From an uncultured bacterium (GTDB lineage Bacteria > Patescibacteriota > Minisyncoccia > Phycocordibacterales > Phycocordibacteraceae): a stretch of 64,000 nt of DNA. The notes under the pieces are model-generated. The model ran no database searches, had not been told where the DNA came from, and saw only the letters and a program-made list of their open reading frames with translations. Within the stretch, counting starts at the first letter, position 1. Every line of letters starts with the position of its first letter. Shown piece by piece: positions 38,312-54,460 of this stretch. The stretch is from the NCBI GenBank assembly GCA_947085985.1, contig CAMTYL010000003.1:234108-298107 (forward strand). Direction: 5' to 3'. The position numbers and the translations under genes are program-made.

Positions 38312-39358
38312 TTAAACAGTAAAGCTGGAAACAGAGTAAATATCCTCCTCTGGCTCCTTTTCCTTTTTCTCTTCAGCTACTACTACTGGAGCAGGCGCTA
38401 CTGGTTCTACCTGTGTAGTGTTTGGAAAAAGATACGGGACCACTGCCACGTCATTCTCGCCCGCGGCTGGGGCCTCCTTCTCTGCCAACAGCTGTGCCTC
38501 GCGTGTCGCAAGAATATTTGCGATGTTCGCAAGGTCTTCAGAAGAAAAGAATTCAATAAGAACACGCCCGCCATTTGGACGATTTTCAATCAACACGCGT
38601 GTGCCAAGAGTCTCGGTGAGGCTCTTCTCTAGTTCCATCATTTCCATGGTCTTGTCGTGCTTGCGGATGCGGTCGGTAGCGATGCGGCGAGCCATTTGTT
38701 CAACCATGCGCACACTTGTCTTCTTGAGCATGATTTCTCTAAACAATGTCTGCATCTCCTCCTTGCGATCCTGGAGCATCAAGAGTGCGCGTGCGTGCCC
38801 TTCGGTAATCTCTTTTGCTACCACTGCGTTCTGAATTTCTTCAGGAAGCAAAAGGAGGCGGATTGAGTTGGTGATGTATTCGCGACTGCGGCCCACCTTT
38901 GCTCCAACTTCAGCGTGCGAGAGTCCGAATGTCTCCACCAGTTGCGCGAGTGCCTTAGCGCGATCAATAGAGTTTAGGTCCTCGCGCTGCAAGTTCTCAA
39001 TGATGGCGAGCTCAAGCTTCATCTTGTCAGTCTGCTCGCCCGCACGGATAACTACAGGCACTTCTTTTAGACCGATTAATTTTGAAGCACGGAAACGGCG
39101 CTCACCCGCAATGAGTTCGTACGAGGCTTGAAGGCCGCCACCCGGTAGCTCGCGCTCGGTGCGTGTGACCACCAGCGGTTGCAGCACACCGTACTGACGA
39201 ATGCTTTCAGCCAGTGCCTTCAAGCGCTCTTCATCAAATTCTTTACGTGGTTGGTATGGGTTAGGTGAAATGCGTTCTACCTCTACCCAGTACACCGAGT
39301 CGTACTTGGTTGGCTCGGTATATTTAGATGCAAGCTTGTCGCCGCCAAACGGATTCAT
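38312..39358 (-). CDS. parB: ParB/Spo0J chromosome partitioning protein
   Basis: ParB box GERRFRASKL. HTH GLSHAEVGAKVGRSREYITNSIRLL. Confidence 0.85.
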   Translation of the reverse strand: MNPFGGDKLASKYTEPTKYDSVYWVEVERISPNPYQPRKEFDEERLKALAESIRQYGVLQPLVVTRTERELPGGGLQASYELIAGERRFRASKLIGLKEVPVVIRAGEQTDKMKLELAIIENLQREDLNSIDRAKALAQLVETFGLSHAEVGAKVGRSREYITNSIRLLLLPEEIQNAVVAKEITEGHARALLMLQDRKEEMQTLFREIMLKKTSVRMVEQMARRIATDRIRKHDKTMEMMELEKSLTETLGTRVLIENRPNGGRVLIEFFSSEDLANIANILATREAQLLAEKEAPAAGENDVAVVPYLFPNTTQVEPVAPAPVVVAEEKKEKEPEEDIYSVSSFTV

Positions 39359-39463
39359 GTATGCATTCTATCACTACGTACCCGCATCACACAGAAGGAG
39401 CGGTGGTGAAAAAAGAACCCGATAGTGGTATGGTTACCCCTAGTGAAGAAGACATTCACTGAT

Positions 39464-39550
39464 GCCGCGGTGATGAAATTGGTAGACATAGGGGTCTCAA
39501 AATCCCCTGCTGGCAACGGCGTGCGGGTTCGAGTCCCGCCTGCGGCACCC
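39464..39550 (+). tRNA. tRNA-Leu (anticodon CAA), long variable arm
   Basis: GCCGCGG-TG-ATGAAATTGGTAGACAT-AGGGGT-CTCAAAA-TCCCC-TGCTGGCAACGGCGT-GCGGG-TTCGAGT-CCCGC-CTGCGGC-A-CC. Confidence 0.8.
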
Positions 39551-40129
39551 ATAGACACTGCTCTCGCACCAGTACTCGCCTACATAGTCGGTGTTGCCTT
39601 AGGAGACGGGAATCTATCCTGCCCAAACGGCAGAGCCACGCGACTTCGCATAACTTGCGATACTAGATATCCAGAAGTAGCTGATGAGATTATCAAGAGT
39701 CTTAACCAGCTTTTCCCACATAACAAGGTTTCCAGGGTTAAGCCTCGAGGAGGTTGTTTTGATATCAGCGTTTACTCAAACAAACTGAATGACTGGATCC
39801 CATGGCGTGTTGGGCATGGCTCCAAAATTGTTCAGTGCGTAACTGTACCCGAGTGGATACTTTTGAATGAAGAGTATTCAAAGCATTGTCTTCGTGGACT
39901 AATTCAGACAGACGGATGCGTGTATGTAGATAGGGGCTACAGAATGGTGAATTTTACGAACAATTCAAAAGAGCTGGCGCAAAGTGTTCATGAGCTGCTA
40001 ACGCAATTGAAGTACCGCCCTCGCCTCATCTGTGTCAGTAACGGGGGCTTTAGAAAGTACACGACACGAGTGGCCAGGAAAGTTGAGGTTGAGCGGCTTA
40101 TACAAGATACAGGACTCTACAAATCGTAA
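39551..40129 (+). CDS. LAGLIDADG homing endonuclease (two motifs). Reading frame is open through the upstream tRNA-Leu(CAA) back to GTG 39425; no canonical start between tRNA end and motif 1
   Basis: Motif 1 LAYIVGVALGDGNL. Motif 2 LRGLIQTDGCVYV. In-frame codons from 39551 (ATA GAC ACT...) lack ATG/GTG/TTG until after motif 1. Confidence 0.6.
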   Translation: MDTALAPVLAYIVGVALGDGNLSCPNGRATRLRITCDTRYPEVADEIIKSLNQLFPHNKVSRVKPRGGCFDISVYSNKLNDWIPWRVGHGSKIVQCVTVPEWILLNEEYSKHCLRGLIQTDGCVYVDRGYRMVNFTNNSKELAQSVHELLTQLKYRPRLICVSNGGFRKYTTRVARKVEVERLIQDTGLYKS

Positions 40130-40169
40130 TGGGTGTGTATGGACAGGACGTAACAAGTTTCGGCGACCC

Positions 40170-40203
40170 TGCAAAGGGTCGCCGAAACTTTTTCACTATG
40201 GTA
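40170..40203 (+). terminator. rho-independent terminator after the LAGLIDADG ORF
   Basis: TCGGCGACCC-tgcaa-AGGGTCGCCGA then AACTTTTTC. Confidence 0.6.
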
Positions 40204-40428
40204 TCCTCGTACTTCCCGCAACGATAGTAAACAGGAATCCCCGATGCCGTTTGGAGTGCTTAATCTGTTCTTCCCCGTTGTAGTTTCCGCTCTGTTTGCG
40301 CCCGCGACTTCTACCCGTCGCGACGACGGCGCCGACACCGACAAGCCGCCTCTTGTGGGCGGCGAAGATTTTGCCCAGTGGGGTGCGCCCGAACGCGCAC
40401 GTTGTCACGGCTAAAGCCACAACGGGAA

Positions 40429-40459
40429 GGGCCCGGCGCAGAAGCGCCGGGCCCTTTTC
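40429..40459 (+). terminator. rho-independent terminator with no annotated upstream CDS (possible ncRNA end)
   Basis: GGCCCGGCGC-agaa-GCGCCGGGCC then CTTTTCA. Confidence 0.5.
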
Positions 40460-40601
40460 AATATCCTCTGTTGAATTTCCGTGCGAGAAAATTGCTTTAG
40501 CTGCTAGGCACGGAGAGGCGAGGAGCGAGCCGTACATGCGAGTACGGTGAGCGACTCGCAGAGGCTCCGTAACAACGCAGATAAGGAAATTTTGTCGTGC
40601 G

Positions 40602-41264
40602 CTATATCTTGCCAACAAGATCCATCCCCGGCTCTAGCGTATCCCCTCCTGGCTCCCACGCTGCCGGACACACCTGCCCCGAGTGCGTGTCGACAAACTG
40701 CGCTGCTTGTAGTTTGCGCAGTGTCTCTTTTGCAGAACGACCAATGCCATTGTCATGCACCTCCATAGTTTTGAGTACTCCCTTCGGGTCAATGATGAAC
40801 GTGCCGCGAAGCGCGAGACCTTCGTCTGGAGTGAGCATGGTGTCACCACCCTGAATGAGTACCCCGAATGCATCTGCAACCTTTCCTGTTGGATCTGCTC
40901 CCATAGGGAACTCAATCTTCTTGATTGCCTCTGACGTATCGTGCCATGCCTTGTGCACAAATACGGTGTCGGTTGAGAACGACACTACTTCTGCACCAAG
41001 CTCCGTAAACTTCGCGTAGAGGCCCGCCATTTCTTCAAGCTCTGTTGGGCATACAAACGTAAAGTCTGCCGGGTAGAACATGACGATAAGCCACTTGCCA
41101 CGGAAGTCTGAGAACTTCATTGGCTTCACTTCGTTGTTCTGAAACGCCTCAAACTCGTAGTCAGGGATCGTTTCTCCGATACGTATTGAAGAGGAGTACT
41201 CTCGGTACGAATCGTGGAAATCGCCACAGTGCTCACAGTAATTGCTCTTTTGTTCAGTAGTCAT
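40602..41264 (-). CDS. peroxiredoxin (AhpC/TSA, 2-Cys type) with short Cys-containing N-terminal extension
   Basis: Peroxidatic Cys FTFVCPTE. Resolving Cys VCPAAW. N-terminal CEHCGD. Confidence 0.85.
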   Translation of the reverse strand: MTTEQKSNYCEHCGDFHDSYREYSSSIRIGETIPDYEFEAFQNNEVKPMKFSDFRGKWLIVMFYPADFTFVCPTELEEMAGLYAKFTELGAEVVSFSTDTVFVHKAWHDTSEAIKKIEFPMGADPTGKVADAFGVLIQGGDTMLTPDEGLALRGTFIIDPKGVLKTMEVHDNGIGRSAKETLRKLQAAQFVDTHSGQVCPAAWEPGGDTLEPGMDLVGKI

Positions 41265-42152
41265 ATGCGTTTTCCGTTATGTGAAGGTCATGATAGCATC
41301 CCAAGTATTGTGAAGCACCTGGATAACGCTCTCCCGCTACTGTGCGTTGTGGGGCCCACTGCCTCGGGCAAATCTGCGCGCGCGGTAGCGCTCGCAAAAG
41401 AGCTGGACGGTGAGGTCATTTCCGTAGATTCTCGCCAGGTGTATCGGATGCTTGATATCGGCACCGAGAAGACAACCGTGGAAGAAATGGACGGCATTAC
41501 TCACCACCTCATAGATATTCTTGACCCGCGGGAATCCTACAGCGCGGCTGACTTCGTGCGCGACGCAGAGCGCCTGATCGTTGACATTGAAGCGCGTGGC
41601 AAGCGCCCCATACTAGCAGGAGGCACGCACTTCTATTTTGAAGCGCTCATATACGGACTGCCAGAAACGAGTGCCCCCGACCCCACTGCAAGGCTCGCAC
41701 TTGAAGCACTCCCGACAGAGGAACTTGTGTCTCGTCTTAAACACAGCGACCCGCGACGAGCGGAGCGCGTTGACCCTCAGAATCGCCGTCGCCTTATCCG
41801 TGCGCTTGAAATAGTGGCCGAGCATGGTCACGTGCCAGAGCGCAACACCGAGACGCCACTGCGAGACGTAGAGTGGGTAGTTATTAACCCCGAGCGCGAC
41901 GTACTGCGCGAGCGTATCACCAGCCGTCTTGAGTCAGCATTTGCTCGCGGACTCATAGAAGAGGTGCGCGGCGTCCGAGACTATGTGGGCGACACTCGTT
42001 TGAACGAACTAGGGCTTGAATATCGCGTCATCGGCGAGTTTCTGCGTGGCGAACGCGAGGAAGATACGCTTCTATCTACCCTCTCAACAAAGCTCTGGCA
42101 CTACGCGCGCCATCAAAAGGCATGGCTGCGCAAACTAGCTGCCACCACTTAG
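41265..42152 (+). CDS. miaA: tRNA dimethylallyltransferase
   Basis: P-loop VVGPTASGKS. DSRQVYRMLDIGTEK. THFYFEAL. Longest ORF from 41214 would overlap the divergent peroxiredoxin start; ATG at 41265 used. Confidence 0.8.
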   Translation: MRFPLCEGHDSIPSIVKHLDNALPLLCVVGPTASGKSARAVALAKELDGEVISVDSRQVYRMLDIGTEKTTVEEMDGITHHLIDILDPRESYSAADFVRDAERLIVDIEARGKRPILAGGTHFYFEALIYGLPETSAPDPTARLALEALPTEELVSRLKHSDPRRAERVDPQNRRRLIRALEIVAEHGHVPERNTETPLRDVEWVVINPERDVLRERITSRLESAFARGLIEEVRGVRDYVGDTRLNELGLEYRVIGEFLRGEREEDTLLSTLSTKLWHYARHQKAWLRKLAATT

Positions 42153-53418: not shown

Positions 53419-53443
53419 CTTCGCGGTAGTATTGCCGTATCAG

Positions 53444-53515
53444 GCTCGGTGGTGAAGTAGAAACACGGCGGATTGCAAACCCGCTACTGCGCGGGTGCGA
53501 TTCCCGCCCGGGCCT
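53444..53515 (+). tRNA. tRNA-Cys (anticodon GCA), atypical (A-C at 31-39, G54 in T-loop)
   Basis: GGCTCGG-TG-GTG-AAGTAGAAA-CAC-G-GCGGA-TTGCAAA-CCCGC-TACTG-CGCGG?-TGCGATT-CCCGC-CCGGGCC-U73. The U73 discriminator fits Cys identity. Confidence 0.55.
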
Positions 53516-53656
53516 CTGAACGAAGTGAAGAGAACGGGAGAACCCTGCCTGCGCAGGGTTCGTCGGGAATCGCAAGCCGCAGCGATACTTCTTGTACTCA
53601 AGAGGTCGCGAGGCCGGGCAGGAGCACTTGCTCGTCCGCGAGCTTAGTGACTGGTG

Positions 53657-53676
53657 CCGTTTCCCGCCCGGGCCTC
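53657..53676 (+). repeat. direct repeat of the tRNA-Cys 3' end (TTCCCGCCCGGGCCTC, 16/16; extended GGTGC-G-TTCCCGCCCGGGCCTC) 160 bp downstream of the original
   Basis: Exact 16-nt identity between 53501-53516 and 53661-53676. Confidence 0.8.
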
Positions 53677-53693
53677 CAAGGTATACTTATTTA

Positions 53694-54197
53694 GTGTCGG
53701 CACGCGTACCAGAGCGTTGGGCTGAGGCAAATGTGCGAGACGCTGTGTCTCGTTCAACCAGTGTTCGTGATCTCATTCAAAATCTTGGACTGGTGCCTGC
53801 TGGTGGTAATTATGACCAGTGCTATCTGCACATTGAACGTTACAAGATTGATATCTCGCACTTTACTGGAAAGGCGTGGTGTAAAGGACGCACTATTCCG
53901 AAGTCTCCCGTATATTCGCTTGAGGAGCTGCTCGTTAAAGACGCAAAAACTTCTCGTGTAAATCTCAAGAGGCGCTTGTTTTCTTCAGGACTGAAAAGAC
54001 GTGCGTGCGAGGAATGCGGCTGGGCGCGAGTAAGTGAGGACGGGAGAATTCCAATTGAGCTTGATCATATAAACGGGGACAGTAGGGACAACAGGCTGGA
54101 GAATTTGAGAATTCTGTGCCCTAATTGCCACAGTTTGAAACCTACACACAGAGGAAGTAATATTCTCTACAAGCGCCGGGGTGGTGAAATTGGTTAG
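53694..54197 (+). CDS. HNH endonuclease (homing-endonuclease-like). Start uncertain (longest ORF from 53592 runs through the tRNA-Cys repeat); stop codon lies inside tRNA-Leu(TAA)
   Basis: CEECGW...IELDHINGDSRDNRLENLRILCPNCHS is a canonical HNH (His-Asn-His, Cys4) motif. TAG stop is the TTAG of the tRNA D-loop. Confidence 0.7.
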   Translation: MSARVPERWAEANVRDAVSRSTSVRDLIQNLGLVPAGGNYDQCYLHIERYKIDISHFTGKAWCKGRTIPKSPVYSLEELLVKDAKTSRVNLKRRLFSSGLKRRACEECGWARVSEDGRIPIELDHINGDSRDNRLENLRILCPNCHSLKPTHRGSNILYKRRGGEIG

Positions 54198-54259
54198 ACA
54201 CGAAGGTCTTAAACACCTTCGACGGAAACGTCATGCGGGTTCGAGTCCCGCCCCCGGCA
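54175..54259 (+). tRNA. tRNA-Leu (anticodon TAA), long variable arm
   Basis: GCCGGGG-TG-GTGAAATTGGTTAGACAC-GAAGGT-CTTAAAC-ACCTTC-GACGGAAACGTCAT-GCGGG-TTCGAGT-CCCGC-CCCCGGC-A. Confidence 0.8.
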
Positions 54260-54442
54260 CATTTGAGTGAAGCGAAAGGAGTGCTGGGGAGCACATCTGG
54301 GAGATGTGCGTGCGGGACCCGAAAACCTTGCGAGACTGGACGCTAGTCCAGCCGCAAGGTGTACGCTGAGATTCTTAAGGAGCACAGCGACTGTAAGAAT
54401 CCAAGTGCAGTTTAGCAAAAGCTGCCCGTCCCCGTAGGGAAA

Positions 54443-54460
54443 GAGTCCCGCCCCCGGCAC
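54443..54460 (+). repeat. direct repeat of the tRNA-Leu(TAA) 3' end (GAGTCCCGCCCCCGGCAC, 18/18) exactly 200 bp downstream
   Basis: Identical to 54243-54260. Confidence 0.8.

Follow-up and report, generated by a model that had tools for sequence, protein, structure and literature searches.

A free-standing LAGLIDADG endonuclease family tied to tRNA-Leu(CAA) in Patescibacteria, and a clade in which its reading frame may be translated through the tRNA gene

The monomeric enzymes I-DmoI and I-Tsp061I, encoded in archaeal rRNA introns, are the described LAGLIDADG homing endonucleases closest to the protein analyzed in this work, whose open reading frame (ORF) follows a tRNA-Leu(CAA) gene in a 64,000-nt stretch (the window, contig CAMTYL010000003.1) from an uncultured Saccharibacteria-like bacterium of the Patescibacteria. 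Both share with it a length of about 190 amino acids (aa), two motifs per chain, a duplicated fold and an acidic residue in each motif. However, identity is about 19-21%, and the family described here, known from its sequence and predicted fold, is free-standing behind a bacterial tRNA gene and not intron-encoded. A free-standing endonuclease gene set among tRNA genes is also present in phage T4, whose GIY-YIG homing endonuclease SegB is encoded in a tRNA gene cluster and is thought to spread by cutting the tRNA-gene DNA of genomes lacking SegB. SegB differs in belonging to another nuclease superfamily, in being carried by a phage instead of a cellular chromosome and in having its own expression signals, with neither coupling of the start codon to a tRNA end nor reading through a tRNA. 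In animal mitochondria, tRNAs punctuate the transcripts and their processing yields leaderless mRNAs. A similar geometry was found in 31 of 81 loci of the family, in which 1-4 nt separate the tRNA discriminator from the start codon and 3' processing would produce a leaderless or near-leaderless 5' end; here, however, the arrangement is bacterial and concerns a single selfish-type gene, and it has been abandoned in the clade of the window. In the window itself, ATA occupies the start position and no canonical start codon appears until position 39863.

A distant likeness of fold relates the family to WhiA, a domesticated LAGLIDADG transcription factor (Foldseek match 8dy7_I). WhiA is longer (about 310 aa, versus about 190 aa), and in the window protein the catalytic Asp residues are kept and the C-terminal Pfam domain HTH_WhiA is not matched, with WhiA_N and LAGLIDADG_WhiA scoring below their cutoffs (21.8 vs 23.4 and 16.5 vs 23.2, respectively). 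Many homologs (P0051, P0066, P0067, P0072, P0077 and others) are labelled 'DNA-binding transcriptional regulator WhiA' by JGI and NCBI, a mis-annotation in view of the sub-threshold Pfam scores and the retained catalytic residues. In the same phylum (the candidate phyla radiation, CPR, or Patescibacteria), LAGLIDADG endonucleases have been described inside 16S and 23S rRNA genes, often within group I introns, in a work where tRNA is unmentioned (PMC11270868). The superfamily and the insertion at conserved stable-RNA genes are also shared with the present family, which lies not within the RNA gene but just past the tRNA discriminator, with no Rfam intron. The full-text literature searched described neither a LAGLIDADG family linked to tRNA-Leu, nor leaderless bacterial mRNAs coupled to tRNAs, nor leaderless usage in Saccharibacteria.

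The presence of a double-motif LAGLIDADG ORF directly after tRNA-Leu(CAA), which had been proposed from the sequence alone, was confirmed by Rfam, ARAGORN and Pfam, with both motifs located (Table 1); the match to Pfam LAGLIDADG_3 had an E value of 2.5e-10 (40.9 bits vs a cutoff of 22.5). Alignment of 22 family members revealed 42 invariant columns that include the G-D-G of motif 1 and the T-D-G of motif 2, and the catalytic Asp residues of these triplets (D19 and D121) were invariant in 22/22 aligned homologs and in 19/19 sequences checked, namely 17 loci of the window's clade plus L004 and L005. The AlphaFold2 model of the core (predicted local distance difference test, pLDDT, 96; predicted template modeling score, pTM, 0.92) displayed the expected duplicated alpha-beta-beta-alpha-beta-beta-alpha element order. 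The top Foldseek matches were all LAGLIDADG enzymes, the best being I-DmoI and I-Tsp061I (E ~7e-9, template modeling score, TM, 0.64-0.73, ~19-21% identity). A sequence search of the PDB, profile included, yielded no match at E <= 0.01, and NCBIfam contained no model for the family, the only matches, weak ones, being to homing-endonuclease segments inserted in helicase and RFC models that bear inteins. An Rfam scan of positions 38500-41500 at E <= 1 detected only the tRNA and weak terminator look-alikes. Because no intron was found by Rfam, the gene is considered free-standing, in agreement with one of the options first proposed; an intron- or intein-encoded enzyme was discarded, as the tRNA is uninterrupted and the ORF lies outside any host protein. 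A tRNA-targeting integrative element was also discarded, since there is no integrase, no second tRNA-Leu(CAA) 3' end in the window within 5 mismatches, and the insert consists of one ORF of 579 nt. We describe it as the gene of a free-standing, single-chain LAGLIDADG endonuclease with two motifs and a predicted I-DmoI-like fold, whose nuclease activity and target are putative.

A search of about 5.8 billion proteins retrieved 530 homologs with a typical length of 187-195 aa, few of which carry names in databases ('LAGLIDADG family homing endonuclease', 'intein/homing endonuclease' or 'WhiA'). From one-genome-per-species bacterial and archaeal contigs, 80 loci were fetched, nearly all of them from Patescibacteria (Saccharibacteria, Paceibacterota, Kaiserbacteria, Minisyncoccia and others). 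The tRNA-Leu(CAA) gene was found directly upstream on the same strand in 73 of these 80 loci and inverted in one (L080), six loci ended at a contig edge and none lacked the tRNA. The tie to the tRNA-Leu(CAA) locus that had been suspected from the window thus extends to 74/74 informative genome loci, and the tRNA was also present in 16/16 further occupied loci from other collections. The linked tRNAs are very diverse, with acceptor stems such as GCCGCGG, GGGCGAG, GCCGGAG and GCCCGGG. With strict motifs, 144 stretches confirmed by tblastn were found among 185,579 species genomes, a patchy distribution. A scan of viral contigs gave no close relative, only one 30% fragment, and a phage origin was discarded on this basis. 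The family is a large, undescribed group of nucleases of about 190 aa that lie always at tRNA-Leu(CAA) in informative loci. The tRNA-Leu(CAA)-endonuclease module was also observed on contigs of metagenome-assembled genomes labelled Azotimanducaceae, Binatia, Omnitrophota or 'uncultured Gammaproteobacteria' (L006, L029, L056 and L031/L033/L038/L043/L058/L059/L070/L079; L070 is a 678-kb contig), which may be either mislabelled or misbinned Patescibacteria or real cross-phylum transfers.

The 31 loci with a start codon abutting the tRNA use 23 ATG, 7 TTG and 1 GTG (for example, GGCA-C-ATG and GGCA-CC-ATG). A leader of 6-16 nt separates tRNA and start codon in 18 of the 81 loci, and a -10 box specific to the gene is located 5-8 nt upstream of the start codon in about 11 loci (as in TATAAT-TTAACAA-ATG). 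The sole locus with an inverted tRNA-Leu(CAA) (L080, 1073-1300) carries its own leaderless promoter, TGCTAAAAT, followed after 7 nt by GTG. A Shine-Dalgarno (SD)-like motif was detected once across the 81 loci. Because of this start geometry, close to a tRNA end or a -10 box, and the near absence of SD motifs, the family seems to be geared to leaderless or near-leaderless translation. CCA is not encoded in most tRNAs of the window, and the maturation of such tRNAs involves an endonucleolytic cut after position 73. By analogy with mitochondrial tRNA punctuation, tRNA 3' processing would have to generate the mRNA 5' end in the start-abutting loci. Decayed or start-less copies were observed outside the window's clade: L072 is frameshifted within a poly-A run that follows TTG, in L076 the TTG of its relative L065 is replaced by TTC, a start is missing on both sides of the tRNA in L029, and L053 and L055 have no canonical start after the tRNA. 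These losses fit the decay phase of the homing-endonuclease life cycle.

The window belongs to a clade defined here by 18 occupied loci with DNA that share its tRNA (acceptor ...CTGCGGCA) and show the gene order RelA/SpoT-ParB(-)-tRNA-endonuclease-(peroxiredoxin)-MiaA. The Met of the 190-aa family forms aligns with codon 39551, which is ATA (Ile) in the window, and none of the 18 loci has a canonical start at this position, occupied by ATA (7 loci), ATT (4 loci), ATC, GTT, GTA, TTA, CCA, ACA or AGC; about 12 members of the clade known only as proteins have I, T, K, P, S or L. The proposal that the frame is open through the whole tRNA, with no canonical start between the tRNA and motif 1, proved correct: the in-frame canonical starts (39425, 39443, 39470, 39473, 39479 and 39521) are all within or 5' of the tRNA, and the first in-frame ATG/GTG/TTG 3' of it is TTG 39863, past motif 1. 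Orthologs with a conventional ATG, considered in the original prediction as genes displaced from the tRNA, do exist in other clades, but they abut the tRNA, 1-4 nt after A73, and none occurs in the window's clade.

The clade has kept the gene after losing this start. The ORFs are intact in 18/18 loci, with at most one change at the 42 invariant sites and none in the window, and every ORF is full length among the approximately 30 clade members that share the start loss. The proportion of nonsynonymous differences (pN) is far under that of synonymous differences (pS) in every clade pair, and the ratio of the corresponding rates (dN/dS) is 0.12 where dS is unsaturated (0.086/0.719, L087 vs L089, with TTA and GTA at the old start and no near-cognate AUN). 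The clade has lost the ancestral start next to the tRNA 3' end, and its gene is under purifying selection. A dead or dying gene that lost its start and persists as a still undisrupted pseudogene, the usual end of the homing-endonuclease cycle and one of the options first considered, would explain the missing canonical start after the tRNA and has parallels in the sporadic decayed copies elsewhere in the family (L072, L076 and L029). However, the full-length ORFs of some 30 members with the same loss, the 42/42 invariant residues kept in the window and the dN/dS of about 0.12 in start-less close relatives imply that the gene is translated, and therefore this strongly disfavoured reading fails; it is given very little credence.

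The start codon that replaced the ancestral one is probably upstream of the tRNA. Initiation in this genome appears to lean heavily on leaderless mRNAs, considering that a TAnnnT motif, often with an upstream TGn, ends 6-9 nt before the start in 19/45 long ORFs of the window, and SD-like motifs are present in 5/45. At the homologous position 5' of the tRNA, the extended -10 motif TGnTAnnnT is found in 17/18 clade loci in one register, and the predicted -35 GTGAAA of the window, 17 nt 5' of the -10 hexamer, corresponds to a GTGGAAAAA/GTGAAAAA block in the same register of orthologous loci. A start codon in the endonuclease frame is located 7-8 nt after TGnTAnnnT in 14/18 clade loci (11 GTG, 1 TTG in L095 and 2 ATG in L088 and L098), with only two out-of-frame starts at such positions. 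Counted from the first base of this codon to the tRNA, the leader is 21 nt long in 11 loci, 18 nt long in two and 13 nt long in L081, where a 1-nt D-loop deletion in the tRNA restores the frame, so that the leader is always in frame. The leader sequences are only about 45% identical among clade loci, and stops make up 0/93 codons in frame versus 20/159 codons in the other two frames, composition predicting about 7 in frame. In L085, L088, L090 and L092 an in-frame stop is found just 5' of the upstream start codon. Leaders are short in L004 and L005, Saccharibacteria relatives that keep ATG after the tRNA, and shorter also in the two almost identical endonuclease-free alleles L082 and L084, of which only L082 has an in-frame start there (ATG at -12). 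In the window, TGGTATGGT followed after 8 nt by GTG 39443, without SD, has the geometry of a leaderless gene with a predicted transcription start, and the spacing at 39426-39445 is the same as in the leaderless genes of this genome. GTG 39443 is also the start of a 100%-identical database protein (P0001, 228 aa). GTG 39425, from which an ORF of 234 aa spanning the tRNA was listed (39425-40129) and to which the original prediction traced the frame, was rejected as the start, since it forms part of the predicted extended -10 and would hardly be transcribed; GTG 39443 is the candidate that is conserved. Two of the three frames of the tRNA sequence are stop-free by reading, and the open frame across the tRNA by itself would be weak evidence for read-through.

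From these comparative data, a start at GTG 39443, leaderless at the tRNA transcription start and followed by translation through the tRNA, is held to be somewhat more probable than all other possibilities together. The endonuclease gene would have neither a promoter nor a ribosome-binding site of its own and would be transcribed from the predicted tRNA promoter. Initiation would take place at GTG 39443, at or beside the transcription start, and the ribosome would pass through the 21-nt leader, the tRNA (84 nt, i.e. 28 codons in the endonuclease frame, with a G1-C72 pair and the discriminator A73 at 39547) and CCC before reaching the nuclease, the transcript ending at the hairpin 40155-40190. 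The product would be a 228-aa protein with a disordered N-terminal tail of 36 aa; in the AlphaFold2 model of this form, the 36 residues derived from leader, tRNA and CCC were disordered (pLDDT <50) and the core was unchanged. Each primary transcript would have one of two fates, tRNA maturation or translation, and co-transcriptional ribosome loading on the 5' GUG could keep the tRNA unfolded. As a consequence, nuclease expression would be low and coupled to tRNA transcription. The broader proposal, evenly balanced in our judgment, is that a working chromosomal tRNA gene doubles as coding sequence, the primary tRNA-Leu(CAA) transcript also being a leaderless mRNA, and that this situation arose in one Saccharibacteria clade from an ancestor in which tRNA 3' processing made the leaderless mRNA.

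Table 1. Features of the tRNA-Leu(CAA)-endonuclease locus, in coordinates of the window.
Feature	Position	Strand	Basis or remarks
Predicted -35 of the tRNA-Leu(CAA) promoter, GTGAAA	39406..39411	+	Proposed from reading of the sequence
Predicted extended -10, TGGTATGGT	39426..39434	+	Hexamer TATGGT at 39429-39434; TGnTAnnnT kept in the clade
GTG, proposed leaderless start	39443..39445	+	8 nt 3' of the -10 hexamer, in the endonuclease frame
tRNA 5' leader, 21 nt (7 codons, VKKTFTD)	39443..39463	+	Frame kept across the clade
Proposed full ORF, 228 aa (leader, tRNA, CCC and endonuclease core)	39443..40129	+	
tRNA-Leu(CAA)	39464..39547	+	Rfam RF00005, 49.6 bits vs gathering score of 29; ARAGORN
CCC followed by ATA	39548..39553	+	ATA 39551-39553 where the family originally had its start codon
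LAGLIDADG endonuclease core, 192 aa, and stop TAA (40127-40129)	39551..40129	+	Pfam, AlphaFold2, Foldseek
Motif 1, LAYIVGVALGDGNL	39575-39616	+	
Motif 2, LRGLIQTDGCV	39890-39922	+	
Intrinsic terminator, 16-bp perfect hairpin (40155-40190) and T-run	40155..40195	+	RNA folding

Several considerations weigh against this interpretation. The clade loci are related by descent and their counts are not independent. A generic sigma-70 scan gave 0 promoters, the predicted tRNA promoter being under its threshold. Strong competition with translation of the shared transcript is to be expected from RNase P and from tRNA folding, and leaderless GUG initiation in Patescibacteria is of uncertain efficiency. 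The comparison with the endonuclease-free alleles involves one lineage and an ambiguous -10 assignment. Finally, L002, L003, L093 and L096 have no upstream start and carry ATA, ATT or ATC as old codon. Because these four loci keep every invariant residue, a second initiation route must exist for them, and it could serve the window, with its ATA, as well.

The main rival, a near-cognate start, is based on such a route: an RNase Z-type cut after A73 would free a 5'-CCC-AUA mRNA, on which AUA 39551 would initiate in leaderless or near-leaderless form, this being the ancestral route with a weakened start. It is supported by the exact alignment of ATA 39551 with the family Met, by the processing-coupled route being the family norm (the 31 start-abutting loci mentioned above), by the predominance of Ile at this position (12/18 loci with DNA and most protein-only members) and by the four loci without upstream start, which all have ATA, ATT or ATC there and remain conserved. 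On the other hand, initiation at AUA or AUU is very poor in the bacteria studied, six members with intact constrained ORFs have GTT, TTA, GTA, CCA, ACA or AGC (dN/dS 0.12 for L087 vs L089), and the upstream in-frame start, the frame-keeping leader lengths and the stop-free leader would be left unexplained. The 6/6 clade loci with a non-AUN old codon carry the upstream start, an association that is suggestive only (2x2 counts 8/6/4/0, hypergeometric probability of about 0.16, hand-calculated). The ATA start is considered unlikely as the route of the window, even if it survives among the start options first listed as the principal competitor of translation within a tRNA-containing transcript, which is favoured by the comparative data; the pseudogene option is rejected. 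Taken together, the loci suggest two usable routes, one through the tRNA and another from a near-cognate AUN start on processed RNA, and the window holds both GTG 39443 and ATA 39551.

Initiation could also occur inside the tRNA, at GTG 39470, ATG 39473, TTG 39479 or GTG 39521, on unprocessed transcripts. Gene callers picked starts of the ATG 39473 type for many homologs (MKLVDIG...), and such a start would serve the four loci without upstream start as well. All clade members have these codons in frame, the tRNA being conserved, but this conservation is wholly explained by tRNA function and is uninformative. In addition, no SD or -10 is positioned for them, they are buried in the acceptor and D stems, and selection on the upstream start and leader would have no account, which makes this possibility improbable and places it well below the ATA start.

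A start at GTG 39443 says nothing about whether the nuclease is a selfish element, and the endonuclease-free alleles are informative in this respect. In L082 and L084 the tRNA differs by 1 nt from that of the window, the ParB, peroxiredoxin and MiaA neighbours are the same and a terminator is found 16 nt after A73; the endonuclease-free junction of L082 reads ...CCTGCGGCA on the left and CATGTATATAAAAGG on the right. The ParB proteins of L082 and L084 are as close to those of occupied lineages as these are to one another. Because the ParB of the endonuclease-free alleles nests among occupied lineages, endonuclease presence seems to be polymorphic at a fixed site, loss being the likelier direction. 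Endonuclease and ParB divergence are correlated (r 0.47, Spearman p 5e-5), the endonuclease evolving faster (about 70% identity where ParB has about 84%). The pattern of presence and absence and the tracking of ParB fit vertical descent with loss as well as homing. Since the sequence 3' of the stop codon is not conserved among the 18 loci, nor between these and the endonuclease-free allele, no target half-site or right-hand boundary is readable from it. In L082 (9480-11070), the tRNA terminator is separated from the peroxiredoxin gene by two opposite-strand ORFs, which we take to be pyrE- and pyrF-like by reading, and in the occupied locus L094 the endonuclease is immediately followed by a gene for orotidine monophosphate (OMP) decarboxylase; because of these additional genes, the locus is considered rearrangement-prone.

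The preferred interpretation is that of a selfish nuclease that has long persisted by vertical descent. The alternative, independent of the start site, is a domesticated host protein, that is, a vertically inherited factor with a host function tied to the tRNA-Leu(CAA) locus. Its fixed position with ParB-tRNA-endonuclease-(peroxiredoxin)-MiaA synteny across Saccharibacteria-like genomes, the divergence that follows that of ParB, the strong purifying selection and a viral-contig scan without a copy are in line with domestication. However, both catalytic Asp residues are invariant, unlike in domesticated WhiA, the distribution is patchy, an allele lacking the endonuclease falls among occupied alleles, decayed copies are found in other clades and the endonuclease evolves much faster than its neighbours. 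Domestication is accordingly regarded as a minority possibility.

Regarding the other features of the locus, the tRNA ends used in this work are those of Rfam (39464-39547), the ARAGORN call being slightly wider (39463-39551). The strong terminator predicted 3' of the ORF was substantiated by folding of the 16-bp hairpin 40155-40190, which is followed by UUUUU and has a centroid energy of -30.2 kcal/mol (z -4.48), with equal stability in 0/200 shuffles. A rule-based terminator scan missed this hairpin, and promoter and terminator calls were based on ortholog conservation, genome-wide -10 geometry and folding instead of the generic scan. The fold of leader, tRNA and ORF start was no stabler than shuffles (z +0.74). 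The divergent intergenic region of 84 nt (39359-39442) contains back-to-back promoters, one for ParB on the minus strand (TGATAGAAT, 6 nt, ATG 39358) and another on the plus strand for the tRNA-Leu/endonuclease unit. Another strong GC hairpin, GGGCCCGGCGC...GCGCCGGGCCC with TTTT after it, is present near 40420-40455 (region 40344-40506), in the interval that separates the endonuclease terminator from the convergent peroxiredoxin gene. It probably serves to terminate the peroxiredoxin transcript, and it explains the weak sub-threshold Rfam matches ar35, Thr_leader and Leu_leader.

A second endonuclease gene beside tRNAs was observed in the window, an HNH ORF (Pfam HNH_3, 2.4e-6; HNH, 1e-5) between tRNA-Cys (53443-53516) and tRNA-Leu(TAA) (54175-54260). 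It was listed at 53592-54197, with a 23-nt overlap with tRNA-Leu(TAA), and its true start is likely GTG 53694, located after TATACT and 6 nt, which would make it leaderless too. Copies of tRNA 3' ends were also found: the 3' end of tRNA-Cys recurs over 19 nt (95%) at 53658-53676, 160 nt downstream of the original and just before the HNH gene, and that of tRNA-Leu(TAA) recurs exactly over 18 nt at 54443-54460, 200 nt downstream of the original and just before the alanine racemase ATG 54483. These direct repeats look like small insertions that duplicated tRNA ends.

If confirmed, a leaderless ORF read through a tRNA would be a new kind of gene arrangement and, to our knowledge, the first bacterial ORF reading through a working tRNA gene. 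The family would exploit the tRNA transcription unit in three ways, with a start abutting the tRNA 3' end, with its own leaderless promoter or with an ORF through the tRNA. Reliance on leaderless mRNAs matters for gene calling in Patescibacteria, where pipelines drop the endonuclease gene or call ORFs overlapping the tRNA. Compact monomeric LAGLIDADG scaffolds such as these may serve as starting points for meganucleases. The family is unnamed, with no NCBIfam model or solved relative found and some of its members mislabelled as WhiA, and its fixed tie to the tRNA makes a homing site or a co-option directly testable; cultivable and genetically tractable Saccharibacteria exist.

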